From: a virus
Direction: 5' to 3' (one strand)
Length of the DNA stretch: 16,115 bases
Virus genome (UHGV): UHGV-1642828
Below the pieces are notes generated by a model. That model saw nothing but the letters and a program-made list of their open reading frames with translations, did not search any database and was not told where the DNA came from. A program made the position numbers and the translations under genes. Of the stretch, positions 1,427-16,115 are shown piece by piece. Numbering within the stretch: the first letter of the stretch is position 1; each line of letters opens with the position of its first letter.

Positions 1427-1427
1427 C

Positions 1428-2646: not shown

Positions 2647-2969
2647 ACTTTCAAGCCCCTCTCATGTAACCAGTGGGCTGCACGCAACCTGGCGTTCTCC
2701 TCACCGGCAAGCAGTGCGCGGATGATACCGACCGCTTCGCTGTCGTCGTCCTTCACTGCGGTATGAAGCGTGATCCCCCGGGCCACGCCACGCTTTATCG
2801 TGATGACGCCTTTTTTCTCCAGTGCGCGAAGATGCTCCACCGCTGCATTCACTGAACGGTATCCCAGCATGGTTGCCACCTCCTGATTGGTTGGCGGGAA
2901 GCCACGTTCTTTCTGGTAAGAAATCAGCATATCCAGCACCTGCTGCTGGCATTGAGTTAACGTCGTCAT
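2643..2969 (-). CDS. LexA DNA-binding-domain protein without a peptidase domain
   Basis: 108-aa ORF whose N-terminal 70 aa align position by position with the LexA N-terminal winged helix (LT..QQ.V.D.I......G.PPT..E.A..LG.RS.NAA.EHL.AL..KGVI.I..G..RGI.L). There is no Ala-Gly/Ser/Lys S24 domain. It is translationally coupled to the methyltransferase upstream and rusA downstream. Confidence 0.6.
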   Translation of the reverse strand: MTTLTQCQQQVLDMLISYQKERGFPPTNQEVATMLGYRSVNAAVEHLRALEKKGVITIKRGVARGITLHTAVKDDDSEAVGIIRALLAGEENARLRAAHWLHERGLKV

Positions 2970-3619
2970 GCCGCCATCTCCCTGACCAGTTTTTCCGCCT
3001 GCTGGCGAACCTGCGCCAGAAACGCCTCACCACATGCCTCAAGTTCATCACGCCCGATGTAGCTGATTGCCGGTCCCTTCCAGGTCTTGTCGAAAACAGC
3101 AATAGCGCCAGCGAAGAAAGCGCCTGTCGGCACCTGCTTATCGTCCTTCGGGATAAACCAGGCAGGCAGTTCAAAACCAATACGCCCGCGAATAAAAGCA
3201 ATATGATCCGCATCTTCCGGCCACCACACTTCGCTGGTGGCAGCTTTGATCAGGAAAACATAGCGCCCGCCCTTATCACGCATGGCACTGGCATGTTTCA
3301 TGATGTAACGCATGCCGGTGATGTATTGCCCCTCATGCTGACTGGCGCGGCTGTATGGGGGATTACCAAAGGCAGCCCCTTTAAGCTCCGCAAGACGTTT
3401 TGACCAGTCATGCGCCAGCGCGTTGTCTTCCGCCGTGTAATACGCGGCACATTTGGCGTTATCACCGTCAGTGAACAGATCCAGAACAAACGGGCCAAAC
3501 AGGGTGTTAATTCCCCAGAAAATGTTGTCCGGCGTGCGCCACTGATCGCCCACTTCCTTCAGTTCATGGGCTGGTTTGTTCCGCAGTTCCACCAGCGCCT
3601 GGCAATATTTATTACTCAT
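2966..3619 (-). CDS. Phage DNA N6-adenine methyltransferase (Dam family)
   Basis: ORF with the FGNPPYS motif (NPPY catalytic motif IV of amino-methyltransferases). The longest ORF starts at 3652, but the ATG at 3619-3617 (MSNKYCQ...) overlaps the upstream stop as TAATG and is the more likely start. Confidence 0.7.
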   Translation of the reverse strand: MSNKYCQALVELRNKPAHELKEVGDQWRTPDNIFWGINTLFGPFVLDLFTDGDNAKCAAYYTAEDNALAHDWSKRLAELKGAAFGNPPYSRASQHEGQYITGMRYIMKHASAMRDKGGRYVFLIKAATSEVWWPEDADHIAFIRGRIGFELPAWFIPKDDKQVPTGAFFAGAIAVFDKTWKGPAISYIGRDELEACGEAFLAQVRQQAEKLVREMAA

Positions 3620-4113
3620 TAAGCCCCCACGTAATTCCCTGACAGATACCACTCTTCACCTGATGCAGCCCGCTTACTGCTTTTCCGTAAACACCGTTCA
3701 CGACGCGCCAGAAAATTGTTTCGTTCTGGCTGGGAGTGGCTTTCACGGAATGCCGCCATCCACACCGTTGCAGCACGACGGTATAAGCCCCTGGACTCCA
3801 GTTCTTCCGCCTGGCGGGTCAGGCACAAAATCACCCGCGGGTCGTTAGTGCCGACATAGAAATTGCGCACAGGTCTGGTTTCACGAACTGGTTGTGGTTC
3901 CGGATCCTGCGCTCTCTCAGTCAGGCGCTGGAAATGTCTGTGTGTATCTCCTTCACAACGGTGAGCCACACGACCACTCTGACGTAACTTGCTTGCTGAC
4001 TGCAGAACGCGCTGCCGTGAGTAACCTGCAAAAGCATCCGCAATGTCTCCGGAAGTACAGCCCGGATGGGCTTCAATGAATTTCTGAACGTCATTCAAAA
4101 GACTCATGCTCAC
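3619..4113 (-). CDS. Putative regulator: N-terminal winged-helix-like region plus C-terminal PerC-like motif
   Basis: 164-aa ORF. The C-terminal AEELESRGLYRRAATVWMAAF...RRERCLRK resembles the recalled PerC/Pch signature (A..LE..GLWRRAA..W ... R..CL). Its start overlaps the replication gene stop (ATGA). Confidence 0.4.
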   Translation of the reverse strand: MSMSLLNDVQKFIEAHPGCTSGDIADAFAGYSRQRVLQSASKLRQSGRVAHRCEGDTHRHFQRLTERAQDPEPQPVRETRPVRNFYVGTNDPRVILCLTRQAEELESRGLYRRAATVWMAAFRESHSQPERNNFLARRERCLRKSSKRAASGEEWYLSGNYVGA

Positions 4114-5051
4114 CCCCTGAATCCTGCCGGGATCTGGCTGTAGTCCACATTGTCGTAACTGGCTTTGAAGTACGGGTCTTCGCGTTTTTCTGTGTACGTG
4201 CTGACGGACGGCGATAAGCGCAGGGAAAGCTCATCCCATTTTTCCCGCAGCTTCGACGGGCTGAGCACGTTACGGCACCAGAACGGATCGCGGCTGACGC
4301 GGCTGTACATCTCGCAGATTTGTTTGTGAGTACGACCATCCTGCACACACATCAGGCGAATTTCGTTTGCCCAGGCTGTCCAGTTCGGTTCTTTGGGACG
4401 AACCACCTCGCCGTCACATTCGGCAGCCTGCTCGTACAGGGCGATGATTTTTTTCCAGAGCCACTGTGCGCAGGTCAAATCATCCTGCGTTCCCCACTGG
4501 CGCTTTTTAGGGCTGAATACAACCGCATCAGGATGGCAAGTTAAAAAATCCTGTTCAGCCGTCTGCGTGTCCGGTTGCGAAGCGTCCGGACGAGAAGGTT
4601 TTTTATCTGACGGATCATGTTTTGATTTTACTGACGGATCCCCGCCAGATTCTGACGGGTGAAAACCCGATTTTTTGCCAGATTTCGACGCATCAAATTT
4701 TGACGGGTCAGATTTTGATGCGTCAGATTTTGACGGGTCAGAATCTGACAGTTGAGAAAATGCCGCTGCCTGAAGCTTCGCAACGTTAAGCTGATAAACA
4801 TTCGACGCATTGCGGTTACCCTGGCGACGCGCCTTACGCGTTAACCAGCCTTCTGCTTCCAGCCGTGCGATAGCCGTTCTGACGGTGCTCATCCCCGCGC
4901 CAATCTGGCGGGCAATGGTTTCAATTGATGGCCAGCACATACCTTCGTCATTACTGAAATCAGCCAGGCGGGCCATAATTGCCACGCTGGATAATTTCAT
5001 ACCTGACGCTGCACAACCATCCCATACATAGCCGGTTAATTTAGTGCTCAT
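4110..5051 (-). CDS. Phage replication initiation protein (N-terminal HTH, Ser/Asp/Lys repeat linker, C-terminal domain)
   Basis: 313-aa ORF with an N-terminal HTH-like region (SIETIARQIGAGMSTVRTAIARLEAEGWL), a central DPSKSDASKSDPSKFDASKS repeat encoded by 15-bp tandem DNA repeats, and a conserved-looking C-terminal domain. It occupies the O-gene position after the cro/cII-like genes. Confidence 0.55.
   Translation of the reverse strand: MSTKLTGYVWDGCAASGMKLSSVAIMARLADFSNDEGMCWPSIETIARQIGAGMSTVRTAIARLEAEGWLTRKARRQGNRNASNVYQLNVAKLQAAAFSQLSDSDPSKSDASKSDPSKFDASKSGKKSGFHPSESGGDPSVKSKHDPSDKKPSRPDASQPDTQTAEQDFLTCHPDAVVFSPKKRQWGTQDDLTCAQWLWKKIIALYEQAAECDGEVVRPKEPNWTAWANEIRLMCVQDGRTHKQICEMYSRVSRDPFWCRNVLSPSKLREKWDELSLRLSPSVSTYTEKREDPYFKASYDNVDYSQIPAGFRG
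4602..4755. repeat. Iteron-like tandem repeats inside the replication gene (candidate origin)
   Basis: Four contiguous in-phase 15-bp units at 4681-4740 (GATTTCGACGCATCA, AATTTTGACGGGTCA, GATTTTGATGCGTCA, GATTTTGACGGGTCA), flanked by degenerate copies containing CTGACGG at 4605-4617, 4631-4640, 4651-4660 and 4741-4751. Confidence 0.5.
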
Positions 5052-5060
5052 GACCGACCC

Positions 5061-5399
5061 CTATTTCCCTGAATTTACGACGAAACTGTTCGAGCGGACT
5101 GAAGCATTCATGCTCATAGCCTTCACGGAGGTAGATAACACGTTGTGTTTCCGGCTCCCAACGAATGACTCTGACGGGCACTCAGTAGTGATCTTTGAAC
5201 CAGCGGTTAACTTGTTGCAAAGGACTGTCTCCTTCTGCCGGTTGAAATCACCCACAGCCCACTCGGCAAAGCTGTGGGTTACAATTTCCCTGTCACCTGG
5301 TACATTCACTGCATAGCAATACTCCACCTTCGCTTTTCCACCCGGTACAGGAAGCGCAATCAGTTGCGAGCGACGGTAGTGTGTTGTTAAACTGTTCAT
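5061..5399 (-). CDS. Hypothetical protein (small ORF between the YdaT-like and replication genes)
   Basis: 112-aa ORF whose start overlaps the ydaT-like stop (ATGA) and which ends 10 nt before the replication gene start. No family recognised. Confidence 0.4.
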
Positions 5400-5980
5400 G
5401 CGTTAGTTTCTCCACAGTCACGACACGCCACGGCGCCCGGAGCTGCACACTCGCGGGCGTCATTACTTTCTGAAATGCAAAAGATTTTGTAGACCAGTGC
5501 TGCATGCTCCTGCAGCTTCGAAATTGAGAGATACAGCTCGTCGTTAATTGCTGTCTTCTCATGCGGTTCCACCACACCGTCTTCGATTGCCGAACGAATC
5601 TGTCTGGAATAACTGCCAATCTGTTCAATGACTTCCAGCAGGCGCTTGTTAATATCGGCGTTGTCCACATCCTCGACGTCAGGAAGAGACACAAAGACGC
5701 CATTTGCAGACTGCGCCACAGCGTCAGCAATGAAGTGAGTTCCACCAGCACGTTGCAAAACCATTGCCAATCCCAGCGGGAAAATCTGATCGCCATCGGC
5801 ACGAAGGCGGTTAAATAATGCGTTCTCTGTTACATCCAGCCAGTCAGCAGCTTCAGCGTAACCACCCGGCAACGCCGCGATAGTTTTTCTGACAGCTTTC
5901 ACGTACCACTCAGGCTGTTTTTCTACTTTCCAGTGATGCTTACCCACGGCTATCTCCTTAAAACTGTGGTTACTTTCCAT
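5396..5980 (-). CDS. YdaT-like protein (cII-position regulator of Rac-type prophages)
   Basis: 194-aa ORF immediately downstream of and overlapping the YdaS/Cro-like gene, in the same arrangement as ydaS-ydaT in the Rac prophage. Assignment is by synteny and general resemblance only. Confidence 0.5.
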
Positions 5981-6218
5981 CTGATAAGTCTTTAATCTTT
6001 TGAAAAATATCTGGACGTAATTTTTCTTTTGATACGCCAGTGGTCATTTCAATAAATATCGAGAGTTTTGCAGGGGGACGCTTTTCTCTGTTCAACCAGT
6101 TCCAGACATGTTGTTGCTTTACTAAACGACCACTGCTGGCTGTGAGCTTCCGAGCCAATTCTGATTGACCACCAGCCAGAGCGATTGCCTCTGATAAGGC
6201 TAATTGCTCAGGTGTCAT
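5970..6218 (-). CDS. Cro-like HTH regulator (YdaS/DUF1019-like)
   Basis: 82-aa ORF, first gene transcribed divergently from cI. It contains GGQSELARKL ... RLVKQQHVWNWL ... LRPDIF, resembling recalled YdaS. A GGAGA Shine-Dalgarno lies 6 nt upstream of the ATG. Confidence 0.65.
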   Translation of the reverse strand: MTPEQLALSEAIALAGGQSELARKLTASSGRLVKQQHVWNWLNREKRPPAKLSIFIEMTTGVSKEKLRPDIFQKIKDLSDGK

Positions 6219-6355
6219 AGCTTTCTCCTATCTGTAAGTAGTAAAGTTGTTGATAACTTCGATTATACAACTACAACAACTTTTATCACAACTTTTAGAT
6301 GTTGGAAAGCTAAAACATAAAGTTGTAACCTCAATAAAAACGAGGGGGATATGTT
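6219..6355. promoter_or_regulatory. Divergent promoter/operator region (OR-like) between the cro-like gene and cI
   Basis: 137-bp AT-rich spacer with repeated AAGTTGT / ACAACTT half-sites (6244-6259 AAGTTGTTGATAACTT; 6288-6304 ACAACTTTTAGATGTTG; 6320-6326). On the minus strand there is a perfect -10 TATAAT (plus 6262-6267) with TTGTGA as -35 (plus 6286-6291, 18-bp spacer), reading toward the cro-like gene. A possible weak cI promoter lies toward 6356. Confidence 0.6.
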
Positions 6356-7042
6356 GTGAAAACATTGGCAGAAAGACTAAAAAGCGAAAGAGAAAAAGCA
6401 GGAATGAGTCAGGCGCAACTAGCTGAAAAAATTGGGCTTTCACAACAATCCGTAGCGAAAATCGAGAATGGAGAAACTCAACAGCCTCGGAAAATTAAAG
6501 AGATTGCTAAAGTGTTAGGGGTTTCTCAAAAGTGGTTGCAATTGGGCATTGAGGATAACGCGTCTTTCCCAGACCTTGTTGTAAAGGAGGCTGAAAGTAC
6601 AGCATTAGATCCTGACATTTTTGCAAACATTCCAGTCCTAGATGTCGAGTTATCAGCGGGTAATGGATGTTTGGCTGAAATAGTTGAATCAACTGTAGAC
6701 TGGTTCCCGCTAAGAAGGATTGATTTAAGAAAAGCTGGTGTATGTGTCTCCAATGCAAAGATCGTAAAAATTTGGGGCAATAGTTTACTACCTGTACTTA
6801 ACAATGGAGATTTTGTTGCTGTTGATGTTTCCCAAACGGTTCCTATTCGTGATGGGGATCTTTATGCCATACGTGATGGCGTATTACTTAGAGTTAAAAT
6901 ATTGATCAATTTACCTGACGGTGGTCTGATTCTAAGAAGTTTCAATAAAGATGAGTATCCAGATGAAATACTCACCTTCGAAGATAGGCGTTCAAGAATT
7001 CACGTTATAGGTAGAGTATTCTGGTCATCGCGCACTTGGTAA
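6356..7042 (+). CDS. cI: cI-type prophage repressor (HTH XRE domain + LexA-like S24 autopeptidase domain)
   Basis: 228-aa ORF with a GTG start preceded by GAGGGGGA. It has an N-terminal HTH (MSQAQLAEKIGLSQQSVAKIENGE), an Ala-Gly cleavage site (LSAGNG), a Ser in GNSLLP and a Lys in LRVKIL, which is the LexA/cI autocleavage architecture. Confidence 0.85.
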   Translation: MKTLAERLKSEREKAGMSQAQLAEKIGLSQQSVAKIENGETQQPRKIKEIAKVLGVSQKWLQLGIEDNASFPDLVVKEAESTALDPDIFANIPVLDVELSAGNGCLAEIVESTVDWFPLRRIDLRKAGVCVSNAKIVKIWGNSLLPVLNNGDFVAVDVSQTVPIRDGDLYAIRDGVLLRVKILINLPDGGLILRSFNKDEYPDEILTFEDRRSRIHVIGRVFWSSRTW

Positions 7043-7225
7043 TGCATCAAAAAACCTTCCTTCAGAAATTTAGTTACCATTATTACCCGCCTTTTCAATC
7101 TTCCTCCCGTGATTTGAGAGTTTCCAATCACGGAAGGAAAGTGTCCCTTGTGTAATTAAAAGCGCATCGTCCATACAACCTCCTTTTTTGATAACCCTTG
7201 CCCTCATTTCACATCCGTCAAAACC

Positions 7226-7290
7226 ACATAAAGTTGTTGACAACAACCAAAACAACAACTAGATTACAACTTAAAGATGTTGCAGTAACG
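7226..7290. promoter_or_regulatory. OL/PL-like operator-promoter for the plus-strand early operon
   Basis: Consensus -35 TTGACA at 7237-7242 and -10 TAGATT at 7260-7265 (17-bp spacer). A perfect 13-bp palindrome TTGTTGACAACAA (7235-7247) overlaps the -35, and the 17-bp element ACAACTTAAAGATGTTG (7266-7282) at the start site matches the OR-region copy at 15 of 17 positions. Confidence 0.55.
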
Positions 7291-7383
7291 AACAGGCAGG
7301 ACGCCCACGAAGTAGCCGCCGGTGGCGTATGAATGACCGGATGATTCGCTGACAGAAAACTTAGGTTGGGGGTAGAGGTTTAC

Positions 7384-7749
7384 ATGAATCATTTATTCAC
7401 ATGCTCATTTTGCGGAGCAACCGAACTGGGAGCGATAAAGATCGTCGCAAAAGGTGGTAAGGACGAACCTGCCATCTGTTCGGAATGCGTAGTCACATGT
7501 GTAGAAAAAATGATCCTGACTAAAAAATCAGAGGCTGAAAAACCAACCTCTGATAACGAAATAATATCAGTCGATAAAAAACTATTTAAAGAGCTTCTTC
7601 AGCTTGTCCTCAACCTTCCTGATTTCGGAAGTAAGCTGGCTGCTGTTGACATTGATAGTAGCTCCACATCGACAAGTGAAACTTTTGTTCGACTTGAGCC
7701 AAGCGATTTTCTTCTTCGTCTTAGTGCCGCACTTAGGGCATGCGGGTAA
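7384..7749 (+). CDS. Small protein with an N-terminal ClpX-type C4 zinc-finger motif
   Basis: Starts MNHLFTCSFCGATELGAIKIVAKGGKDEPAICSECVVTCVEKMI; compare the recalled ClpX N-domain [36 protein letters not shown]. GAGG lies 6 nt upstream of the ATG at 7384; the longer ORF from 7366 uses TTG and has no Shine-Dalgarno. It is the first gene after the PL-like promoter. Confidence 0.55.
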   Translation: MNHLFTCSFCGATELGAIKIVAKGGKDEPAICSECVVTCVEKMILTKKSEAEKPTSDNEIISVDKKLFKELLQLVLNLPDFGSKLAAVDIDSSSTSTSETFVRLEPSDFLLRLSAALRACG

Positions 7750-7872
7750 CGTAATTTCCTGGTTATCAAAAGCGCCCATAAACATCCCTCTTGGTTGTGT
7801 GAGAACACCAAGATACCACCGCGCCTGATGTGGTTAAAAGCAGGCTAAAGCAATAACAAGTAACTCCCTGTT

Positions 7873-7922
7873 CTGGCGGCCCGGTGTTTTCCCGTGTATT
7901 TCCGGTAACCGCCAGCCTTTTT
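7873..7922 (+). terminator. Candidate intrinsic terminator (tL1-like) between the first early gene and rdgC
   Basis: Inverted repeat CTGGCGG/CCGG (7873-7884) with CCGG/CCGCCAG (7902-7915) around a 17-nt loop, followed by CCTTTTTC (7916-7923). Confidence 0.4.
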
Positions 7923-8091
7923 CAGGGCACAACAGAAAAGGGCATCACCGGGCGACGGGCTCATAACCCAATCCACCCGGGCAAAAAGAAAGCGGTCTCT
8001 GCAAGCCGCCGACCAATGCAGGTGCCCTTCTCTGTTGTGTATGGAGAAACTAACTTTTTAGCGCCGGTGCAGAGGCGTTGAGGAACCGAGA

Positions 8092-9009
8092 ATGAACAAT
8101 CCGTTTTTCAAAAATATGTTGGTGTATCGCATTAATCGCGATTTCACCATCAACCAGGAAGAGCTGGAACAGCAGCTTGAACTATTTCGCTTCACTCCAT
8201 GCGGTAGCCAGGATATGGCAAAAACCGGTTGGGTATCACCACTTGGTCAGCTGTCAGATCGCTTGCATCACACTGTCAATAATCAAGTGTTGTTGGTTAT
8301 TCGCCGGGAAGAAAAAATACTGCCATCTCCTGTCATTGCTGAAGAACTGCGCAAGCGTGTGTCGCGTCTGGAATCCGATCAGGGGCGTCGCCTCAAAAAA
8401 ACTGAGAAAGATTCGCTGCGTGATGAAGTGTTGCACTCCCTGCTTCCTCGGGCGTTCTCCAAAAACTCGACTGTTAGTTTGTGGATCAACGTCACCGACG
8501 GTCTGATCATGGTTGATGCAGCCAGCGCTAAACGTGCCGAAGACTCACTGGCCCTGCTTCGTAAAACTCTCGGTTCTCTCCCGGTGGTACCGCTGACTAT
8601 GGAAACGCCGATCGAACTAACTATGACCGAATGGGTTCGTTCCGGTAGTGCGCCTGCTGGCTTTGGCCTGGGTGATGAAGCCGAACTGAAAGCTATTCTT
8701 GAAGATGGTGGTATTGGACGCTTTAAAAAACAGACTCTGGTCAGTGACGAAATTCATGTGCATCTGGAAGCTGGCAAAGTAGTTACAAAGCTGTCTATCG
8801 ACTGGCAACAGCGCATTCAGTTCGTTCTTTGCGATGACGGCAGCATCAAACGCCTTAAGTTCTCTAATGAGATTACAGAACAAAACGACGATATCGACCG
8901 TGAGGATGCGGCTCAGAGGTTCGACGCTGACTTTGTTCTGATGACCGGCGAGCTTATCTCTCTCATTAACGGATTAACAACCTCTCTCGGCGGCGAAGCC
9001 AAGCGATAA
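8092..9009 (+). CDS. rdgC: Recombination-associated protein RdgC homolog
   Basis: 305-aa ORF with long identities to E. coli RdgC ([117 protein letters not shown]). GAGGAA Shine-Dalgarno upstream. Confidence 0.9.
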
Positions 9010-9117
9010 ACACCAGGCAACAATTACCCCCATAAGCATGGGTTGGGTTGCTGCACGCTAAATTCAGCAATTCATTAATTTAATGGCGCGGTGCAGCGCG
9101 CCAATATGGAGAAAACC

Positions 9118-9657
9118 ATGAGCTACATTCAGACATTATCCGGCAAACATTTTAATTACCTCGATATCCAACAGGACGATATCGTGATCGAGGATATTGC
9201 TACCGCGTTGTCTCATATCTGCCGCTTTGCAGGGCATCTTCCTGAGTTTTACAGCGTCGGCCAGCATAGCGTTTTAACCAGCCATCTCGTTCCGCAGGAG
9301 TTTGCCTTAGAAGCACTGCTTCATGATGCCGCCGAAGCCTACCTGCAAGATATTCCCTCACCGCTTAAGCGCCTGTTACCGGATTACCAGGTGATCGAAG
9401 CTCGCGTAGACGCTGCTATTCGCCAGAAATTTGGCCTACCGACGGAGCAACACCCAACAGTGAAATATGCCGATCTGGTGATGCTCGCCAGCGAACGCCG
9501 CGATTTTGAGATTGACGAAGGTTCCGTGTGGCCATGCCTCGATGGCGTTGTCCCGACGGACCTATTCATCATCAATCCAGTTCGTCCAGGCCAGTCATAC
9601 GGCATGTTCATAAATCGCTTTAATGAGTTGATGGAGCAGCGTCAATGCGCCGCATGA
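9118..9657 (+). CDS. HD-domain phosphohydrolase
   Basis: Contains H...H (ALSHICRFAGH) followed about 35 aa later by HD (LLHDAAEAY), the metal-binding pattern of the HD superfamily. GGAGA lies 9 nt upstream of the ATG at 9118; the longest ORF starts at 9091. Confidence 0.5.
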   Translation: MSYIQTLSGKHFNYLDIQQDDIVIEDIATALSHICRFAGHLPEFYSVGQHSVLTSHLVPQEFALEALLHDAAEAYLQDIPSPLKRLLPDYQVIEARVDAAIRQKFGLPTEQHPTVKYADLVMLASERRDFEIDEGSVWPCLDGVVPTDLFIINPVRPGQSYGMFINRFNELMEQRQCAA

Positions 9658-9821
9658 AGGTAAAAGAACTCGTGGCGGAGGCGTTTGCCTCCGTGGCTGA
9701 ATTGCCACCAAAGCATGCATCGCTTATGCGCGAAGTCGCTACCAGGCTTGAAGCTACGTTCGCAGCATTAACCGAATCATTGGCGCAACTGGAACAGGAA
9801 CGTAAAGGTAAAACGCAATGA
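9654..9821 (+). CDS. Small hypothetical protein (55 aa), translationally coupled on both sides
   Basis: Not in the ORF track (below its length cutoff). ATG at 9654 overlaps the HD gene stop (ATGA) and its TGA overlaps the next gene's ATG at 9818 (ATGA). Translates MKVKELVAEAFASVAELPPKHASLMREVATRLEATFAALTESLAQLEQERKGKTQ. Confidence 0.35.
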   Translation: MKVKELVAEAFASVAELPPKHASLMREVATRLEATFAALTESLAQLEQERKGKTQ

Positions 9822-10072
9822 CCGTATTTGAATATCTCCAGGGCCACCCGAACGCCACCAGCGGTGAAATCGCAAGGGCGATGGGTAAAAAGACGCCAGC
9901 CGTAGCCAGCGCACTATCTCAGCTTTATGCAACAGGGAGAATTGTTAAGTCTGGCGCACGCGGTGGGATACCGACATACCGCGTCAATGATCTGCCGTTT
10001 GGATGCAGCAATAACTTAACGCTGATATTTAACCAGCTTCTGCGAAACGTCCGCAAAGGAGCAGCCCAATGA
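9818..10072 (+). CDS. Hypothetical small protein, possible winged-helix DNA-binding protein
   Basis: 84-aa ORF with a wHTH-like segment (ATSGEIARAMGKKTPAVASALSQLYATGRI); overlapping start/stop coupling with neighbours. Confidence 0.45.
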   Translation: MTVFEYLQGHPNATSGEIARAMGKKTPAVASALSQLYATGRIVKSGARGGIPTYRVNDLPFGCSNNLTLIFNQLLRNVRKGAAQ

Positions 10073-10386
10073 GCAAATTTACGGCATTACCAGTAGAACG
10101 CGACCAATACGGCTACTGGACTCACCCCGTCTATGAGCAATTTTGCGATGGTCGTGAATTTATCTCACCTGATGAGTTCAACGCCTGGCTGGATAAAAAC
10201 GGCCTCGAATGGACGGTAGTTTACCGGGATGAAGAAGACATCGATCCTGAAGTTGATGGTTACGATATTTCAGCCTGGCAGCCAGAATCGCCAGCCGGTG
10301 AAGGTTGGTTTGTCGGTTCAATTCACAACACCGAAGATGGCGCGGTATGCATCTGGTTACGTAACGTTGAAGGCGGTGCAGCATGA
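10069..10386 (+). CDS. Hypothetical protein
   Basis: 105-aa acidic ORF, translationally coupled (overlapping stops/starts) within the early-left operon. Confidence 0.45.
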   Translation: MSKFTALPVERDQYGYWTHPVYEQFCDGREFISPDEFNAWLDKNGLEWTVVYRDEEDIDPEVDGYDISAWQPESPAGEGWFVGSIHNTEDGAVCIWLRNVEGGAA

Positions 10387-11141
10387 CAGTCCATACACTG
10401 AAGCAATGCCGCCCGGACCAAGAAGAAACCGAGTATTTCTGGAAGTTGTTTCATGCGGCACAACGGAATGACGCTCGCTGGAACGGTAGTGAAATCAGCA
10501 TTATCGCCGATGAACTATCCCGGACGGATTTAGATCGTAATCAAAAACTGTTTCTTCTCCGTGCCTGGCAAGTGCTGGTAGACGACAAAGGTGGATTCGG
10601 GCGCTTGATGGGTGCCTTTGATACTTACGTCTACAACATGCAGGACCCTGATGATGACTGCGTAGCCTGGAAGCCTGAACTGGCTAAGCTGCTACAGGAT
10701 GGCAATCTGTTTGATGTTGTGCTGACGGCATATCAGGAGGCCTGCCATGAGGGGATCGTTAATTGGGAGGCAGCGGTATCTCTTTCTGAGGAAAACGTAG
10801 AACTGAAGCGCAAACTCTACGCAGCAGAGAATCAAATAGCAGAACTGGAGGCGCGGACGTTCAATCCTGCAATTCTAGATGTGATAGCAGAGCGCCAGCG
10901 GCAGAAAGCCGTTGAGGGCTGGACGTCTGAGCATGACGACGCCTATCAAAACAGTGAGCTGGCAGATGCTGCAGCTTGCTATGCGATTAACGCACACAAT
11001 CAAGGCCTCTCAACGCCAGCGCATTGGCCGTGGGCTCCTGATTGGTGGAAGCAATCTGGGCCGCGTCGTGACCTTGTGAAAGCTGGCGCACTTATTCTGG
11101 CCGAAATTGAACGCATAGACCGCCAGGAGGCCGCCCAATGA
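10383..11141 (+). CDS. Hypothetical protein (Trp-rich C-terminal region, coiled-coil segment)
   Basis: 252-aa ORF, coupled to neighbours; contains AENQIAELEAR and HWPWAPDWWK. No family recognised. Confidence 0.5.
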   Translation: MTVHTLKQCRPDQEETEYFWKLFHAAQRNDARWNGSEISIIADELSRTDLDRNQKLFLLRAWQVLVDDKGGFGRLMGAFDTYVYNMQDPDDDCVAWKPELAKLLQDGNLFDVVLTAYQEACHEGIVNWEAAVSLSEENVELKRKLYAAENQIAELEARTFNPAILDVIAERQRQKAVEGWTSEHDDAYQNSELADAAACYAINAHNQGLSTPAHWPWAPDWWKQSGPRRDLVKAGALILAEIERIDRQEAAQ

Positions 11142-11530
11142 GCAACATCAACAAACGCGCAACAGAGATGCTGATTGAAAACGGAGTGCTGGTTGCCGAC
11201 ACGCTGAGGCGTTTGGCTGATAACGAAATCGACTCCGATTACTTTGCTATTTGCCACACAAACGAAAACGGAACTGAAATTGAATGCGAGCTGGCAATTA
11301 CAGATTACGCACGCCAATCTGCTGGAATCGTTGATGATCTGGTAAATGCGCTGGAAGCCGCAGAGAAGCGCATTGCAGAACTGGAAGCGCGGGAAATATC
11401 GCTCCCAGAACTTAGCAGCATGCTTCATCGAACAGATTTTCACGAGGATTACCAAACGGTAATGGCATACAAAGTTTCTGAGGTCATCGCTGCAATCCGC
11501 GCCGCTGGCATTCGCATCAAAGGAGAGTGA
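11138..11530 (+). CDS. Hypothetical protein
   Basis: 130-aa ORF, coupled; shares the EKRIAELEAR heptad-like motif with the preceding gene. Confidence 0.5.
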   Translation: MSNINKRATEMLIENGVLVADTLRRLADNEIDSDYFAICHTNENGTEIECELAITDYARQSAGIVDDLVNALEAAEKRIAELEAREISLPELSSMLHRTDFHEDYQTVMAYKVSEVIAAIRAAGIRIKGE

Positions 11531-11531
11531 T

Positions 11532-11966
11532 ATGGCGTTAACACACCGCGAACTCTGTCAGATTGCGTACAAGTTCCTTAAGCGCAACGGGTTCAAGGTT
11601 TGTTTTCATGACCGCTTTATAGCTGTAACCAGTACCGGAGAACAGCCAGATGCTATGGGATTCAGAAATTCAGCATCATGCCTGATAGAGGCGAAATGTT
11701 CTCGTGCTGACTTGTTGGCAGATAGAAAAAAGCGTTTTCGTAAAAATCCGTCTCTTGGAATGGGCGACTGGCGATTCTTTATTAGTGAGCCGGGAATTAT
11801 TTCAATTGAGGATTTACCACCTGGCTGGGGATTACTTCACGTTGTTAACGGAAGAGTACGGAAAGTGCATGGGTGCCCAAGGGTAATTGCTGTTGGGGTA
11901 ATCCTGACGATAAGCCATTTACTGGAAATAAGCAGGTTGAATGCGATTACATGTTATCTGCATTAA
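11532..11966 (+). CDS. Hypothetical protein with a possible PD-(D/E)xK nuclease-like motif; the 3' end may be frameshifted
   Basis: 144-aa ORF containing GEQPDAMGF...CLIEAKCS (a D ... ExK arrangement). A second reading frame opening after the stop at 11846-11848 encodes a plausible C-terminus (...GNCCWGNPDDKPFTGNKQVECDYMLSALRRMELRGHLNEIYDGVIVNKKEGNAA) and ends at 12044-12046 in an ATGA overlap with the next gene. Confidence 0.4.
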   Translation: MALTHRELCQIAYKFLKRNGFKVCFHDRFIAVTSTGEQPDAMGFRNSASCLIEAKCSRADLLADRKKRFRKNPSLGMGDWRFFISEPGIISIEDLPPGWGLLHVVNGRVRKVHGCPRVIAVGVILTISHLLEISRLNAITCYLH

Positions 11967-12042
11967 GGCGCATGGAGTTGAGAGGGCACCTTAATGAAAT
12001 ATATGACGGTGTAATTGTTAATAAGAAAGAAGGAAACGCGGC

Positions 12043-12744
12043 ATGATCACTATTACCAAAGAGCGACTGCTGACAATCAAGCAGTGGCGCGAAACATACG
12101 GACCTGGTAGCAACGTTGTACTGCCAGCAGAAGAAGCGGAAGAACTGGCACGAATTGCTCTGGCATCGCTGGAAGCAGAGCCTATTGGTGAGGTTTCAGA
12201 GAAGCGACTCGGCCTTGTTATGGATGGAACGGTAGACCTTGGCGGGAAATCAACTTATCGCATCATTAAGGGAGAAAAAGCGATGAAGTTGTTGCCGCTG
12301 GGGACGAAGTTTTATGCCGCCCCTCCAGTGCCAGTAGTACCGGAAGAAAAACCAATGCCTAATCCTCTTAGCATGTACGCGGTTGATGCTTTTGCCGCTA
12401 TTGCAGAGGTGAGAGGCTGGAACGCCTGCCGTGCCGCTATGCTTCAGGGTAAATCCGAACAACCACAAAACGCACAACAAAATATTCCGGAAAATATTCA
12501 CGGTGGCAACTCTCCGGTAACTCCGGATGGTTGGATAAGCTGTAGTGATCGAATGCCGGAAAAGAATCAGAACGTGCTTATTTCAGTGAATTTCGATAGC
12601 TCTCTGGTTGAACCGCTAATATGCTCCGCACGCTATACCGGAAGCACCTTTCGGCGCGGAGATGCAACGATTAAGCCGGGTAATGGTATTGAGCAAGCAA
12701 CTCACTGGATGCCGCTACCGGAACCGCCGCAGGAGGTGAAGTAA
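12043..12744 (+). CDS. DUF551-like phage protein
   Basis: 233-aa ORF whose C-terminal part (GWISCSDRMPEKNQNVLISV ... ATHWMPLPEPPQEV) matches the recalled DUF551 signature ending in W.PLPEPP. Confidence 0.5.
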   Translation: MITITKERLLTIKQWRETYGPGSNVVLPAEEAEELARIALASLEAEPIGEVSEKRLGLVMDGTVDLGGKSTYRIIKGEKAMKLLPLGTKFYAAPPVPVVPEEKPMPNPLSMYAVDAFAAIAEVRGWNACRAAMLQGKSEQPQNAQQNIPENIHGGNSPVTPDGWISCSDRMPEKNQNVLISVNFDSSLVEPLICSARYTGSTFRRGDATIKPGNGIEQATHWMPLPEPPQEVK

Positions 12745-13316
12745 TGAATAACTTAATGATCGACCTTGAGACGATGGGGAAAAATAAGGATGCACCGATC
12801 GTTTCCATTGGCGCGGTGTTCTTCACTCCAGAAACCGGAGACATCGAACAAGAATTCTATACGGTTGTTAGCCTGGAAAGTGCTATGGAGCAAGGAGCTA
12901 CACCTGACGGCGATACCATCCTGTGGTGGTTGAAACAGAGCTCTGAAGCACGAGCTGCAATCTGTATTGATGATACTTTGTCGATCAGCGATGCACTCTC
13001 TGAACTGAGCCATTTCATTAATCAGCATGCAGACAATACAAAATATTTAAAAGTCTGGGGTAACGGGGCCACCTTCGACAACGTAATTTTACGTGGAGCT
13101 TACGAGCGAGCAGGACAAATCTGCCCGTGGGCGTACTGGAATGACCACGATGTACGCACGATCATTACGCTTGGGCGTTCCATCGGATTCGACCCAAAAA
13201 TGGACATGCCTTTCGATGGCGAACGGCACAACGCCCTGGCTGATGCCCGTCATCAGGCAAAATATGTTTCCGCTATCTGGCAGAAACTAATTCCTGCCAC
13301 CAGCACAGAATTATGA
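12744..13316 (+). CDS. 3'-5' exonuclease (DEDDh / DnaQ-like fold)
   Basis: 190-aa ORF with N-terminal IDLETMG (Asp-x-Glu) and C-terminal HNALADARHQ (His-x4-Asp), as in DEDDh exonucleases. TAATG overlap with the upstream gene. Confidence 0.65.
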   Translation: MNNLMIDLETMGKNKDAPIVSIGAVFFTPETGDIEQEFYTVVSLESAMEQGATPDGDTILWWLKQSSEARAAICIDDTLSISDALSELSHFINQHADNTKYLKVWGNGATFDNVILRGAYERAGQICPWAYWNDHDVRTIITLGRSIGFDPKMDMPFDGERHNALADARHQAKYVSAIWQKLIPATSTEL

Positions 13317-13352
13317 TTTTCCCGGGTGCAGCCGGTTTTGATGGAGAAAATT

Positions 13353-13634
13353 ATGAACACCTTGTTTTTACTGATGGCTGAATTCAATACCCCTAACATT
13401 GAACTCTCAGCAGTTAGCCAGAAGTACTTTGGCATGAGTCCAGCCACGGCAGAAGCAAAAGCAAACGCTTGTAAGTTGCCCGTTCCAACATATCGCATCG
13501 GCACATCACAAAAAGCAAAACGTTGCATCAATATTCAGGATCTTGCGGAATACATAGACAAAAGACGAGAAGAAGGACGTATCGAGTGGGAACAGGTCAG
13601 AACAGGCAAACAGAAGGGCAAAGAACATCACTAA
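13353..13634 (+). CDS. PrtN-family / excisionase-like DNA-binding protein
   Basis: ORF track gives 13326..13634; GGAGA 5 nt upstream favours the ATG at 13353 (MNTLFLLMAEF...). It is the last gene of the early-left operon, followed directly by a terminator. Family assignment is from recalled PrtN-type excisionase resemblance. Confidence 0.5.
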   Translation: MNTLFLLMAEFNTPNIELSAVSQKYFGMSPATAEAKANACKLPVPTYRIGTSQKAKRCINIQDLAEYIDKRREEGRIEWEQVRTGKQKGKEHH

Positions 13635-13636
13635 AG

Positions 13637-13663
13637 AAAAAACCCGCCTGAAGGCGGGTTTTC
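13637..13663. terminator. Bidirectional rho-independent terminator
   Basis: AAAAAA-CCCGCC-TGAA-GGCGGG-TTTTC: a perfect 6-bp GC stem (13643-13648 / 13653-13658) with a 4-nt loop, flanked by an A-run and a T-run. It terminates both the plus-strand operon and the convergent small minus-strand gene. Confidence 0.75.
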
Positions 13664-13681
13664 AAAAAGCACCAGCTATGA

Positions 13682-13855
13682 TCATGCTGCTTTGCGACGA
13701 CGAAGCTTACCCTGCTGCTCTTTACCAGAGACAGTAGCGTGAGTGAACGCATTAGGAGCAGCCTTCATCAGAACTTCAACAGCAGCACCCATACCTGCGA
13801 ATGCTTTCATTGTGTCGAACTTAACCTGTGGCTTGGTTGCTTTTTGATCTTTCAT
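13682..13855 (-). CDS. Small hypothetical protein (57 aa)
   Basis: Not in the ORF track (below its length cutoff). ATG at 13855-13853 with GGGAG about 8 nt upstream. Translates MKDQKATKPQVKFDTMKAFAGMGAAVEVLMKAAPNAFTHATVSGKEQQGKLRRRKAA and ends just before the bidirectional terminator. Confidence 0.4.
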   Translation of the reverse strand: MKDQKATKPQVKFDTMKAFAGMGAAVEVLMKAAPNAFTHATVSGKEQQGKLRRRKAA

Positions 13856-14051
13856 AGAAAACTCCCGAGACAGTAAAGGCGTCTCTAACCCTCTCTTTAA
13901 AGCTAGCTTGTTTCGCTAACTTATGCCAATCGATCATGTCGATTGGTGACATCGTTTCTTAGTAGTTTAAGCACAAAACGACTGCCATAGATGTACCTTT
14001 AAGGTAATCTGGACGGGTATCCTACAATTTGTAGACCCTTCTCGTCTATAC

Positions 14052-14588
14052 CTACTGAGCAAATTTAAGAAAGATATCCTGCAGCTCATCAATGACTGCA
14101 GACATCACATAACCGCACTGTTCCATGCGGAAACCAAAAGACTCGTAATACTGCACCAGTTCTGGTACTGGCTCTACAATGTGGACAACTTTACATTCAA
14201 CAGCTTTACAAAATATAAAAGCACTCATAAGAGTGAGTAAAACCATGCGCCCTTTCAATGGGTGAGATTCATCTTCTCTAGAAAACCTTTCGATCATATG
14301 GATACGAAAGATGTTTTCTTCAACCCCATAAACACAAATTGCTGCTCCTGATGGTATTCCCTGAACCCGACCTTGCTGAACAAGTTTTATGCAGAACTCA
14401 TACTTTTCTCTGGAGTTGCCATAGGTGCTTAACGCATAGTCCCATTCAAGCTCACCATAGCCACCACACAGAATCTTGTAATCATCATCACTGAGCGGAC
14501 CAACAGCAAGAGGTAAGCCGACATGATCAATAATCAACTGGATATTGTTACGTACTGATTGACCTATCTCGTCCAGGGTAAGCATCAT
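14052..14588 (-). CDS. Hypothetical protein (178 aa), weak GNAT-like resemblance
   Basis: Isolated ORF in the AT-rich block; two adjacent ATG codons at the start. A minus-strand TATAAT (plus 14618-14623) lies about 25 nt upstream. It contains QQGRVQGIPSG and a C-terminal VQYYESFGF, loosely reminiscent of GNAT motifs A and B. Confidence 0.45.
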   Translation of the reverse strand: MMLTLDEIGQSVRNNIQLIIDHVGLPLAVGPLSDDDYKILCGGYGELEWDYALSTYGNSREKYEFCIKLVQQGRVQGIPSGAAICVYGVEENIFRIHMIERFSREDESHPLKGRMVLLTLMSAFIFCKAVECKVVHIVEPVPELVQYYESFGFRMEQCGYVMSAVIDELQDIFLKFAQ

Positions 14589-15126
14589 GGCCTCTCAAGC
14601 GGAACACTAAAAGTCGCATTATATCTCATTCTTAAGCCGCGTATGGATTACACCTTGAAATGAAAACGCCGGGTTCCCAATAGGCTCCCACAGAGTGTAT
14701 AACTACTTGTTTTTCAACAACGGTACATCCTATCGAGCATTGGTGCAACGCTAAACCGACCACTCCAGTGAACGTCAGTTTTTTCAGGCATTGCGCTGGT
14801 TTGGTTGATTTTTTGCATTTCAGAATTACCGTGCATTTTCAAATGTAGAGATTATTTTATCGATATATCATGGGGTTATGTTATTCAGCATCACTGTTCA
14901 GGAGGCTCAATAACGGGGTACTATACCATAACAACAGGAAGCGCCTGTCTCATTGCAAAAGAAAATTGAGATCCTCTCAAGGCATGAAGCTCTCACGAAG
15001 TGATGGAAATAATCTTATTAGCCGTTAGCTTTGTTAAGGCCAATGATAAACAATCCAGGTTCGACGATAAATAAAAATCACACATTAAACTCCGGTGATA
15101 TCTCTCCCTGCTAATAGCACTGATAG

Positions 15127-15162
15127 AGAAAAAAAGAACCCAATAAGCATTGGGTTCTTTTA
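15127..15162 (-). terminator. Rho-independent terminator downstream of the 248-aa gene
   Basis: Perfect 10-bp stem AGAACCCAAT / ATTGGGTTCT (15135-15144 / 15149-15158) with a 4-nt loop. The plus-strand A-run at 15127-15135 gives a long U-run on the minus-strand transcript. Confidence 0.65.
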
Positions 15163-15198
15163 TGTAATGCCTTCCATACCATCGAAGAACTTCACATA

Positions 15199-15945
15199 TT
15201 ATTTCTCCGATTTAACCCCGAATAAATCATAAATTAATTTAGAAGTGTCTGTATATATTTTAATCTTTTCCTTTGAGTTTGGGTCAAACGACTTAGCAAA
15301 GTCAATTAATTTCGGTGCAGCATCTCGCATTTTGCTTAAAATATCAGGGGCGAGCTTTCCTTCATTCACCAGATGTGACATCTTATCCAGATAGCCATCA
15401 AAATTCATTTCTCCCCCATCTGCCAGACGCTTCATCTCTCCCAGGTACTTCTTCATATCACGTTGAGATAACTCTTCAAACTGAGCTGTCAGATAGTTCT
15501 CATTATCATCATTAATATTCACTTTTTCTGCTCCTGCTAAATCTGTGTAGGCACTAGAGTATGAAAGTGAAATCAACAGCGAAGCGAATAATTTTAAGCT
15601 GTTGTCATCATATTCCTGACATGCATTAACAAACGTTAAAAAACCAGAACCTATTGCTTGCAAATGTATATTCGCTAAAGGTTCATTATCTTTAGATTCC
15701 TCATAAAAAAGCTGAACCGTGGAGGGAAGGCCATTCTTGGTTTCTACATCAAAAGTATATCGTTCTATGGGCGTTGCATCTTTATTATCCTCAGGATTAC
15801 ATATACTATTAATCGCAAAATGAAAAATAGCCCGATCAACAACTGATGCAATAAATTCACGATCGTTTAATTCCTCATCAGTGCAATCTCCAATATACTT
15901 ATTAACCCACTCTTTGAGATTAGTTATTTGCTCAATTAAAAACAC
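15199..15945 (-). CDS. Hypothetical protein (248 aa), AT-rich cargo gene
   Basis: Long ORF in strongly AT-rich sequence with its own downstream terminator. No family recognised from sequence. Confidence 0.5.
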
Positions 15946-16071
15946 ATTTTTTTACGTGCATGCCATAAATTATGAGTGATTCTTTGAATAAACAAATCTA
16001 TTTTTGCAATAATTATATCCCGATGACGCAGCGCTGAATAATCAATAGACTTACCATATATATTATTTAAT

Positions 16072-16115
16072 CTGTCTCTTATACACATCTGACGCTGCCG
16101 ACGAATAGAGAGGTG
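16072..16115. other. Illumina Nextera adapter remnant, reverse complement (CTGTCTCTTATACACATCT + GACGCTGCCGACGA + ATAGAGAG + GTG)
   Basis: Exact reverse complement of the adapter at positions 1-45, minus one terminal base. Confidence 0.9.

Follow-up and report, generated by a model that had tools for sequence, protein, structure and literature searches.

The open reading frame (ORF) at positions 14052 to 14588 of the window, which is a stretch of 16,115 nucleotides of the virus genome UHGV-1642828, is a genuine gene on the minus strand, and by its structural model it encodes a conserved GNAT-fold protein, referred to here as gp23 after its counterpart in phage mEp460. The gene opens a mobile two-gene "moron" cassette of about 1 kb, which also codes for a small basic protein (gp24) and which, in a lambdoid prophage integrated in dusA, occupies the variable slot near att, at the attR end. 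We propose that gp23 and gp24 quite possibly form a non-canonical toxin-antitoxin (TA)-like or phage-defence module, in which the GNAT would be neutralised by gp24.

The cassette and its prophage setting

The features of this region are the following:

15199-15945 (minus strand): yjbM-like DUF2713 gene of the chromosome, beyond the prophage, from annotation and K-12 alignment
14714-14836 (minus strand): displaced 5' piece of the host gene dusA, with codons 1-35 followed by codons from outside the gene up to a stop; its annotation is truncated tRNA-dihydrouridine synthase
about 14715-14733: attR junction/core, the K-12 alignment breaking at about 14733
13869-14671 (minus strand): exchangeable slot (P1, GNAT gene, P2 and leader), delimited by identity breakpoints against a PanA-type prophage end
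14591-14623 (minus strand): putative GNAT promoter P1, with a -10 TATAAT at 14623-14618 and a Shine-Dalgarno (SD) GAGAGG at 14596-14591, predicted from the sequence
14052-14588 (minus strand): gene for the GNAT-fold protein, mEp460 gp23 family, PHROG 4350, acidic (pI 4.8)
14019-14048 (minus strand): putative internal promoter-like element P2, TAGACG (14048-14043), 18 nt, TAGGAT (14024-14019), predicted from conserved hexamers
13856-14015 (minus strand): structured leader or intercistronic RNA of about 150 nt, predicted from folding and covariation, with five hairpins (H1, about 14015-13988; H2, about 13987-13950; H3, 13946-13926; H4, 13922-13900; H5, 13885-13867)
13866-13862 (minus strand): SD of gp24, GGGAG
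13682-13855 (minus strand): gene for the 57-aa basic partner, mEp460 gp24, PHROG 2741 (E=8e-36), WP_000654815.1
13638-13663 (minus strand): intrinsic terminator closing the cassette, bidirectional (it also lies behind xis), with an 11-bp stem, 6 GC pairs and a T-run
13326-13634 (plus strand): excisionase gene (xis), PrtN/pyocin-activator family, PHROG 1300 (E=8e-40), from RefSeq and mEp460 annotation

On the attR side the GNAT gene is the outermost gene of the prophage, and the displaced promoter and 5' fragment of dusA lie immediately upstream of it. Between the yjbM-like gene, whose terminator is at 15161-15132, and position 14842 lies the promoter region of host dusA. At the other side, xis is convergent with the cassette and marks the prophage backbone. 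The fragment at 14714-14836 is 100% identical to residues 1-35 of K-12 DusA. The preliminary description had searched upstream of the GNAT gene for a partner and had found there only this 40-codon ORF: the ORF does exist, and it was discarded as an antitoxin because it is the 5' remnant of dusA cut by prophage integration; the conserved 57-aa gene lies instead downstream of the GNAT gene. It is known that dusA-specific integrases insert about 100 bp into dusA (Farrugia et al., 2015; Phi-stx2dact/1720a-02). The prophage studied here resembles those carrying such integrases in its junction at about codon 35 of dusA with the displaced host 5' fragment at attR, and in the phage-borne dusA 5' surrogate located beside int (71% identity to DusA 1-35). 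The integrase itself lies outside the window, and int and the surrogate were read from the attP form of the element (locus L032, mEp460). That literature covers the integration system and not the pair of cargo genes found here beside attR.

The 178-codon ORF was borne out, but translation probably begins at its second ATG, at position 14585, giving a protein of 177 aa, since homologues start with MLTL, the RefSeq annotation has 177 aa and the spacing of the SD GAGAGG fits this codon better. The gene had been considered an orphan, which is contradicted by its occurrence in PHROG 4350, in phage mEp460 (gp23) and in 358 E. coli genomes, and by the 51 clusters at 90% identity and 99 cluster representatives at 50% identity that were found. 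Both cassette genes are under purifying selection (dN/dS of about 0.07 for the GNAT gene and 0.11 for gp24), and the GNAT ORF is intact in 102 of 103 loci. Both carry only "hypothetical" annotation; a few UniRef names read "N-acetyltransferase domain".

The order of the cassette is an own -10 element, the acidic GNAT gene, P2, the leader, gp24 and the terminator. In the window and in each of the 104 loci, a gp24 homologue was found downstream of the GNAT gene and in the same orientation, and the GNAT gene plus a downstream small ORF also occur in Salmonella, Hafnia and phage Eeyore (where the small ORF is unannotated). As a unit, the pair has entered at least five genomic contexts that are unrelated to each other, among them the dusA end, the Q-holin slot, the tail module of a myovirus and the end of a Shewanella prophage, and the two genes remain side by side down to about 40% GNAT identity. 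About 6.6% of the complete E. coli genomes carry the cassette, many O157:H7, O111 and O55:H7 strains among them, and it is also present in prophages of Salmonella, Enterobacter, Citrobacter, Cronobacter, Edwardsiella, Photorhabdus and Shewanella. In E. coli, the GNAT gene and the complete cassette occur in exactly equal numbers of genomes (358), against 562 for the small ORF; neither in these counts nor in any locus examined was a GNAT gene seen without the small ORF. In the sole decayed locus (L025) the GNAT gene is frameshifted and the small ORF is intact. This asymmetry is as expected of a toxin and its neutraliser.

Comparison with a PanA-type prophage end delimited the exchangeable slot: the two sequences match over 14900-14672 (100% identity) and 13868-13501 (98.6% identity), with unrelated sequence in between. 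About 200 E. coli genomes carry in the slot, instead of the GNAT gene, genes for a Panacea-domain protein (PF13274, E=2e-19; an antitoxin-type module) and a 128-aa protein; Panacea has been described in published work as a promiscuous antitoxin domain. In sister dusA prophages the PanAT (Panacea/DUF4065) module occupies the same att-proximal slot and is followed by the same 57-aa ORF, whose SD and terminator also stay in place. No Panacea gene accompanies gp23, and the two modules are alternatives, not homologues. Since the small ORF is kept beside the PanA module in about 200 genomes, it may have a GNAT-independent function.

Predicted fold and active site of gp23

The AF2 model of gp23 (pLDDT 92.1, pTM 0.88) has the GNAT topology (beta1-alpha1-alpha2-beta2-beta3-beta4-alpha3-beta5-alpha4-beta6), and the best 50 Foldseek matches to this model were all GNATs, including AtaT, TacT3 and KacT. 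The GNAT reading of the preliminary description was upheld in part. Curated GNAT profiles failed to recognise the protein: gp23 gave no match at E<=10 to Pfam (Acetyltransf_*) or NCBIfam, and neither did 10 distant relatives. Searches of PDB sequences with gp23 alone and with a close-family profile retrieved only spurious armadillo-repeat and gp41 matches; with a broad gp23-family profile the best non-artefact matches were GNATs, at a marginal level (5c82, E=0.063).

Two sequence motifs had been suggested as motifs A and B. VQYYESFGF as motif B was in register, and it is located in helix alpha4 of the model (residues 142-149), where the motif reads Y148-E-S-F-G-F and its counterpart in E. coli RimI reads Y115-E-S-L-G-F. 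An hhalign comparison of the gp23 family with RimI covered 14 columns at 1.6% probability and serves as a register check only; its sole aligned segment placed YYESFGF opposite ALYESLGF, with Tyr148 facing Tyr115, at the catalytic position of RimI. Tyr148 and Trp49 are near-invariant in 79 sequences, down to about 17% identity (Tyr148 also across the family at about 20% identity), and HPLxG, IE (beta4) and E/D-P (beta5) are conserved as well. The assignment of QQGRVQGIPSG to motif A did not hold, since this segment spans the beta2-beta3 hairpin (strands 62-71 and 74-88) and is among the least conserved stretches. The true beta4-alpha3 loop is the invariant H109-P-L-x-G113-R-M115 (HPLKGRM in gp23), in which the central glycine (G113) alone fits the motif A consensus Q/R-x-x-G-x-G/A, with P at the Q/R position and M at the G/A position. 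Because motif A is non-canonical, cofactor binding by gp23 is not assured. The spacing of the motifs had been described as atypical, which was a consequence of this mis-assignment: G113 and Y148 are 35 residues apart versus 36 for G108 and Y144 of AtaT.

GNAT toxins have been defined by their association with DUF1778, DUF4065 antitoxins going with one clade (PMC9177977). Like TacAT, AtaRT, ItaRT, KacAT and GmvAT, the cassette encodes a GNAT-fold protein of about 175 aa on a mobile element with a small-protein gene as partner, and gp23 has the alpha4 Tyr and the beta4-alpha3 Gly at an AtaT-like spacing, with the structures of TacT, AtaT and KacT among its fold matches. Unlike in the GNAT/DUF1778 systems, the partner gene lies downstream and not upstream, its 57-aa product is basic, mostly disordered and devoid of an RHH/DUF1778 domain, and between the two genes lie a promoter-like element and a 150-nt leader with predicted structure; also unlike those toxins, to which no sequence similarity could be detected, gp23 is a strongly acidic protein whose motif A is non-canonical. 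None of AtaT, TacT, KacT and ItaT in PDB was returned by phmmer or by two profile searches, so that the similarity is at the fold level only, and it does not exceed the structural similarity of gp23 to housekeeping GNATs.

The partner protein and the RNA between the genes

The partner gp24 (pI 10.5) is predicted to have a central helix and disordered tails rich in Lys and Arg; its AF2 model (pLDDT 62) contains a helix at residues 15-32 only. It gave no match to Pfam or PADLOC, and neither a DNA-binding or RHH domain (Pfam scan) nor an RHH-like predicted fold (AF2) was found. It is more conserved than the GNAT, also at synonymous sites (dS 0.52 versus about 1.7), which is the opposite of typical antitoxins, and gp24 could be a backbone gene used as a recombination anchor. 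The charges of both proteins are complementary in 41 distinct pairs: the pI is 4.3-4.9 for the GNAT (net charge -8 to -18 in 41 family members, as bulk charge) and 9.6-10.8 for the partner. In a distant branch this complementarity is kept with reversed polarity, the partner there being a non-homologous protein with an acidic tail.

For P1, a -10-like hexamer was found at -28 to -42 in 23 of 31 unique GNAT upstream regions from unrelated insertion contexts. P2 is located directly past the GNAT stop codon, and its hexamers are kept in 37 of 42 unique spacers that otherwise diverge; the Shewanella spacer contains a TTGATA-N-TATAAT-like element at this site. A simple sigma-70 scan flagged neither P1 nor P2, and the case for both is one of conservation, not of consensus strength.

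Downstream of P2, the leader has a minimum free energy of -49.2 kcal/mol (z=-3.74), and none of 200 shuffled sequences reached so low a value. Fifteen divergent leaders folded independently gave a common five-hairpin layout, which RNAalifold also supported. Covariation analyses pointed in the same direction: 90% of the cells were paired, versus 20-44% when the pairing was slid, and 29 double-change cells were counted versus 10.6+-3.2, a number reached in none of 500 shuffles. The evidence for H2 comes from the independent folds only, MAFFT misaligning this hairpin so that it has no column-based covariation score, and H5 is one column off in four alignment rows, its "unpaired" cells thus being alignment artefacts. 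A search of the GNAT-gp24 spacer against Rfam yielded no family and only weak terminator-like matches. The leader is not sRNA-17, an RNA published from prophages similar to mEp460 (PMC7719688), since the sequence of sRNA-17 is absent from the window. At the end of the cassette, the terminator (ACCCGCC-loop-GGCGGGTTTTT) is conserved in all aligned loci.

Explanations for the gp23-gp24 pair

In the module that we favour, gp23 would be an acyl-CoA-dependent acyltransferase with Tyr148 as predicted catalytic residue, Glu139 at the end of beta5 and the cofactor loop H109-P-L-K-G113-R-M. Its acidic surface would target a positively charged acceptor, which would probably be a basic protein or peptide and not tRNA; basic gp24 would bind and neutralise it; and the internal promoter and the structured leader would set the supply of gp24 separately. 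Loss or dilution of gp24, for instance on infection or prophage loss, could then free the enzyme. Distant GNAT relatives adjoin genes for OLD-like ATPase/TOPRIM, HEPN-AbiU2, DpnII and RelA/SpoT; PADLOC v2 gave no match to a known defence-system model for gp23, gp24 or the distant relatives. A more specific version, which we put forward tentatively and consider somewhat unlikely in all its parts, is that the pair represents a previously unrecognised GNAT-based two-component immunity or addiction system: the acidic GNAT would acylate not aminoacyl-tRNA but basic proteins of phage, ribosome or nucleoid, the 57-aa disordered gp24 would restrain it, and the covarying five-hairpin leader would gate gp24 translation and could act as a sensor, all from an att-proximal slot that lies behind the host dusA promoter after integration.

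It was also considered that both proteins could be enzyme and substrate, gp23 acetylating gp24 at its N-terminus or lysines and thereby switching the activity of gp24, which would be the real effector, for instance a nucleic-acid- or ribosome-binding peptide. The best structural matches of gp23 include enzymes acting on basic termini or tails (NatD/histone H4, GCN5, RimI, RimJ and a lasso-peptide acetyltransferase), and this explanation would fit the strict co-occurrence and charge complementarity of the pair, the Lys/Arg-rich disordered nature of gp24 and its higher conservation. NatD/Naa40, GCN5, RimI and RimJ have only 7-17% identity to gp23 and no profile-level relationship with it, and they differ from gp23 in its non-canonical acetyl-CoA loop and in its being encoded by an accessory phage gene that has a small partner of its own. 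Against the enzyme-substrate explanation, the small ORF persists intact without a functional GNAT gene in L025 and without any in about 200 E. coli genomes, which argues that it does not need the enzyme, and the partner in the distant branch, non-homologous and with its acidic tail, also speaks against this reading, which we judge unlikely.

Alternatively, the two genes could be independent, the GNAT being a lysogenic-conversion enzyme acting on a small molecule (polyamine, antibiotic or metabolite) or a host protein, and the 57-aa gene a neighbouring backbone gene. In favour of this possibility, the small ORF stays in place with its SD and terminator upon exchange of the slot, it has a promoter-like element of its own, and SpeG-type polyamine and antibiotic acetyltransferases are among the structural matches. 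Nevertheless, joint movement of the pair between at least five unrelated contexts, its persistence down to about 40% GNAT identity, and the failure to find the GNAT gene alone, make it rather improbable. That gp23 is a GNAT-fold pseudoenzyme or binding protein lacking transferase activity, such as a scaffold sequestering a basic phage or host protein, would agree with its non-canonical motif A, with the inability of GNAT profile HMMs to find the family and with its very acidic bulk charge; it is very unlikely, since Tyr148, the beta5 acidic residue and the Gly113 loop are kept in very distant relatives and would not be needed by a mere scaffold. The least probable explanation, a canonical aminoacyl-tRNA-acetylating toxin (TacT/AtaT/ItaT/KacT type) with a protein antitoxin, is opposed by the absence of a DUF1778/RHH or Panacea gene adjoining gp23 in a class defined by DUF1778 association, by the dusA origin of the upstream ORF, by the lack of sequence kinship with the toxin clade in PDB and by the negative charge of gp23 versus the positively charged surface at the dimer interface by which AtaT binds tRNA (PMC7595197). 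In our reading, gp23 falls outside the GNAT/RHH family of tRNA-acetylating toxins.

If gp23 and gp24 do form a TA or defence module, GNAT-based systems would be extended beyond the paradigm of RHH antitoxins and tRNA acetylation, the new elements being a disordered basic partner that does not bind DNA, a probable protein target and a layer of control by an RNA leader. This leader is a candidate for a new family of cis-regulatory RNAs. In addition, phages integrating in dusA have a swappable att-proximal cargo slot, occupied by the GNAT cassette or by the PanA module, which is a useful site in which to search for further defence genes.

The acetyltransferase-fold protein and its motifs

The gene under study is an ORF of 178 codons on the minus strand (14052-14588) that opens with ATG-ATG. 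The ORF stands as the preliminary description gave it; its protein length of 178 aa probably does not, since homologues open MLTL, the RefSeq entry (WP_000956557.1) has 177 aa and the spacing of the SD GAGAGG suits the second ATG better, so that the real start is probably at 14585. The gene was considered real because it was intact in 102 of the 103 homologous loci fetched and showed a dN/dS of about 0.07. Its description as an orphan was contradicted by a full-length match to PHROG 4350 (E=2e-103), by 51 homologue clusters at 90% identity spanning Enterobacterales and Shewanella, by 99 cluster representatives at 50% identity, recovered when 1.84 billion proteins were searched exhaustively with a profile, by gp23 of the cultured lambdoid phage mEp460 (100% identity), and by its presence in 358 of 5,426 complete E. 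coli genomes. In E. coli O111:H8 08-4455 (NZ_CP077540.1, hit H76), the only such record in the listed E. coli sample, the gene was matched in two separate places, with 74% coverage in the best, and this copy may be disrupted by an insertion.

Of the two comparisons to GNAT folds initially proposed, the structural one supported the assignment and the profile scans did not. No match was obtained in Pfam, NCBIfam or PADLOC, even at E<=10, and a broadened profile of 79 sequences had GNATs as its best meaningful PDB matches at marginal level only (5c82, E=0.063). An AlphaFold2 model from a 40-sequence alignment (pLDDT 92.1, pTM 0.88) displayed the order alpha0, beta1, alpha1, alpha2, beta2, beta3, beta4, alpha3, beta5, alpha4, beta6, alphaC. 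All of its top 50 Foldseek hits were GNATs, including GCN5, SpeG, NatD, RimI/J, AtaT, TacT3 and KacT; structural matches had identities of 7-17% and favoured no subfamily, and a viral structure library returned generic GNATs only. As a model prediction, the GNAT fold of the gp23 family is solid.

The segment VQYYESFGF, first read as motif B, retained that assignment: it forms helix alpha4, and hhalign aligned it, but no other segment, to RimI (sequence confirmed identical to PDB 5isv), placing Tyr148 opposite RimI Tyr115, which we take to be the proposed general acid of that enzyme. Across the family, down to ~17% identity, two residues are nearly invariant, Tyr148 and Trp49. QQGRVQGIPSG had to be abandoned as motif A, as it falls in the beta2-beta3 hairpin and shows little conservation. 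The beta4-alpha3 loop, home of the pyrophosphate-binding motif, is the invariant H109-P-L-x-G113-R-M115, in which the central glycine is all that remains of Q/R-x-x-G-x-G/A. Acidity is also retained where beta5 ends, the position of E139 being E or D in nearly all members. G113 and Y148, 35 residues apart, are the equivalents of G108 and Y144 of AtaT, which lie 36 apart and of which Y144 is catalytic and G108 blocks acetyl-CoA binding when mutated to D (PMC7595197). From these residues we infer that the protein would be an active transferase whose cofactor loop is unusual.

A small basic partner and its leader RNA

The preliminary description had sought a small partner gene upstream; a conserved one was found downstream instead. 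A systematic scan located it in 104 of 104 loci and in the window, where it is the 57-aa ORF 13682-13855 on the minus strand. Three prophages of very different context have a gene of 56-58 aa downstream of the GNAT gene on the same strand: an Edwardsiella lambdoid, where the pair lies between replication and lysis genes; a Shewanella prophage, at its end; and a Photorhabdus myovirus, midway in its tail module. The products of these small genes are homologous to the window protein (PHROG 2741). The small ORF is also present in Salmonella dusA prophages and in Hafnia, where the cassette occupies the moron slot between Q antiterminator and holin. In these Hafnia prophages (L110/L111, 3051-4109) a gene for a RelA/SpoT-domain protein of 319-352 aa lies directly upstream of the cassette and may serve defence in the manner of toxSAS or CapRel. 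In Escherichia phage Eeyore (PP925821.1) the GNAT homologue is only 42% identical, and an unannotated 53-aa partner homologue (4798-4959) lies 248 nt downstream, where the deposited annotation has four ORFs of 30-38 aa.

The small ORF is protein-coding (dN/dS 0.11), and Pfam and PADLOC scans gave no match. Its product is predicted to have one central helix (residues ~15-32) and disordered Lys/Arg-rich tails (pLDDT 62). Charges were complementary across 41 distinct pairs, the GNAT having pI 4.3-4.9 and net charge -8 to -18 and the partner pI 9.6-10.8. A distant marine branch (~20% identity) combines a basic GNAT-like protein with a non-homologous, acidic-tailed 58-aa partner encoded in an overlapping ORF; neighbouring genes on these metagenome contigs (L114-L116) encode an OLD-like AAA/TOPRIM ATPase, HEPN AbiU2 and a DpnII-type protein, surroundings that look like a defence island. 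Synonymous divergence was far lower in the small ORF (median dS 0.52) than in the adjacent GNAT gene (~1.7), which may reflect mosaic recombination in which the small ORF is the conserved flank, or extra nucleotide-level constraint.

Features of the cassette and its junction (window coordinates)
14623-14618, minus strand: -10-like hexamer TATAAT of the GNAT gene, by conservation
14048-14019, minus strand: internal promoter-like element TAGACG-18 nt-TAGGAT, by conservation
13856-14015, minus strand: five-hairpin leader RNA, ~150 nt, up to the SD of the small ORF, by thermodynamic z-score and covariation
13663-13638: intrinsic terminator closing the cassette, conserved
within ~14733-16071: yjbM (DUF2713), dusA promoter region and dusA codons 1-35, chromosomal

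In 23 of 31 unique upstream regions, regardless of insertion context, a -10-like hexamer precedes the GNAT start by 28-42 nt, and in 37 of 42 unique spacers a promoter-like element lies directly past the GNAT stop. Variants of the latter were TAGACA-16-TAG(C/G)AT in the Photorhabdus/Xenorhabdus lineage and TTGATA-type in Shewanella. Conservation thus points to two putative promoters. The window leader folded at -49.2 kcal/mol (z = -3.74; 0 of 200 shuffles folded as well), and 15 divergent spacers folded independently gave the identical five-hairpin layout despite wholly different sequences of the second and fourth hairpins. In an alignment of 19 distinct sequences, 90% of cells were paired, against 20-44% with partners slid; double-sided changes numbered 29, against 10.6+-3.2 in shuffles (0/500), and six pairs showed compensatory change. 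RNAalifold gave further support. Numerous changes are C-G to U-G or A-U to G-U, which can pair only on the genes' own strand. Rfam contained no family matching this RNA, a candidate new cis-regulatory RNA.

The dusA junction and an exchangeable slot

The window carries a lambdoid prophage encoding CI, a CII-like protein, a replication protein, Dam, RusA, KilA-N, DUF968, RdgC, a YfdR-like protein, a 3'-5' exonuclease and a PrtN-type excisionase. Alignment to K-12 and to annotated E. coli genomes assigned ~14733-16071 to the chromosome. Since K-12 identity through the first 35 codons of dusA breaks off at ~14733, with a half-matching, core-like stretch beyond, the 40-codon ORF at 14714-14836, listed in the preliminary description as the only small ORF upstream, is the displaced dusA 5' end. 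Elements with dusA-specific integrases insert ~100 bp into dusA and supply a surrogate 5' end (PMC4482086, PMC6328086), and by sequence the junction is an instance of this known behaviour. The attP form is visible in mEp460 (L032): int on the minus strand, a divergent phage-borne stretch (4753-4857; also in L033, L056 and L057) whose translation is 71% identical to DusA 1-35, then after 144 nt the GNAT gene, followed by the small ORF and terminator, with xis convergent. The junction and this order make the GNAT gene the last at the attR end. As the surrogate lies upstream of it in the excised form, integration swaps the dusA-type promoter region preceding the cassette. The gene is co-oriented with the host dusA promoter, a simple scan found no terminator-like site between them, and read-through from that promoter may occur.

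Beside the junction, the yjbM-like DUF2713 gene (15199-15945) is annotated as frameshifted in four loci (L001, L119, L120, L121), and its K-12 version is split into yjbL and yjbM. Both window ends (1-45, 16072-16115) consist of Illumina Nextera adapter that was left untrimmed and lies in inverted orientation (ACAC, i5 index CTCTCTAT, TCGTCGGCAGCGTC and mosaic end AGATGTGTATAAGAGACAG); genuine genomic sequence therefore spans only ~46-16071, and ORFs running to the ends (e.g. 9-428, 15936-16088) are partly artefactual.

The 1-kb cassette matched 562 complete E. coli genomes, 358 in full and ~200 only in SD, small ORF and terminator. At the same attR end of the latter, a Panacea-domain protein (PF13274, E=2e-19) and a 128-aa protein replace GNAT gene and leader, with the same 57-aa ORF 40 nt beyond. 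Sister dusA prophages of this type include E. coli MS6198 (L118, 1293-2500) and L119-L121; in L121 a CoiA-like gene is inserted between small ORF and xis. Sharp breakpoints at 14672 and 13868 define 13869-14671 as an exchangeable cargo slot. Taken by itself, the GNAT gene matched 358 genomes (361 records), exactly as many as the full cassette, so it was never seen without the small ORF, which often occurs without it. Loss is likewise asymmetric in the sole decayed locus (L025), with the GNAT gene frameshifted and the small ORF intact.

Possible roles of the pair

Pfam, NCBIfam, PADLOC and Rfam hold no name for the protein family, partner or leader, and no paper describing them was found; those on mEp460 mention only the unrelated sRNA-17. 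The comparisons establish that the small gene is an obligate companion of the GNAT gene, moves with it, and encodes a product of complementary charge, and that the pair resides in moron and defence slots. The reading we favour, tentatively, is a toxin-antitoxin-like or defence module: the acidic GNAT, as effector, would acylate a cationic target, the disordered basic partner would bind and thereby neutralise it, and the partner's separate promoter and leader would fix the ratio of the two. Several toxin-first TA operons have a separate promoter for the downstream gene. The main counter-arguments are that conservation of the partner exceeds that of the enzyme, synonymous sites included, and that the partner persists beside a different, Panacea module. 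Each suits a backbone gene serving a function of its own, which keeps two other models alive: that the GNAT acetylates the small basic protein itself, which we hold to be unlikely, and that the two are independent accessory genes, which is rather more doubtful. A GNAT fold lacking transferase activity is improbable, being disfavoured by the active-site conservation. The canonical GNAT toxin acetylating aminoacyl-tRNA, raised in the preliminary description, is the least probable: compared with the GNAT/DUF1778 family (PMC9177977), the gp23-family protein is not a member, since it lacks an RHH or Panacea neighbour, shows no sequence link to that family and is oppositely charged. In the module we favour, the gp23-family protein works like a GNAT, as a predicted transferase, and may act like a GNAT toxin.
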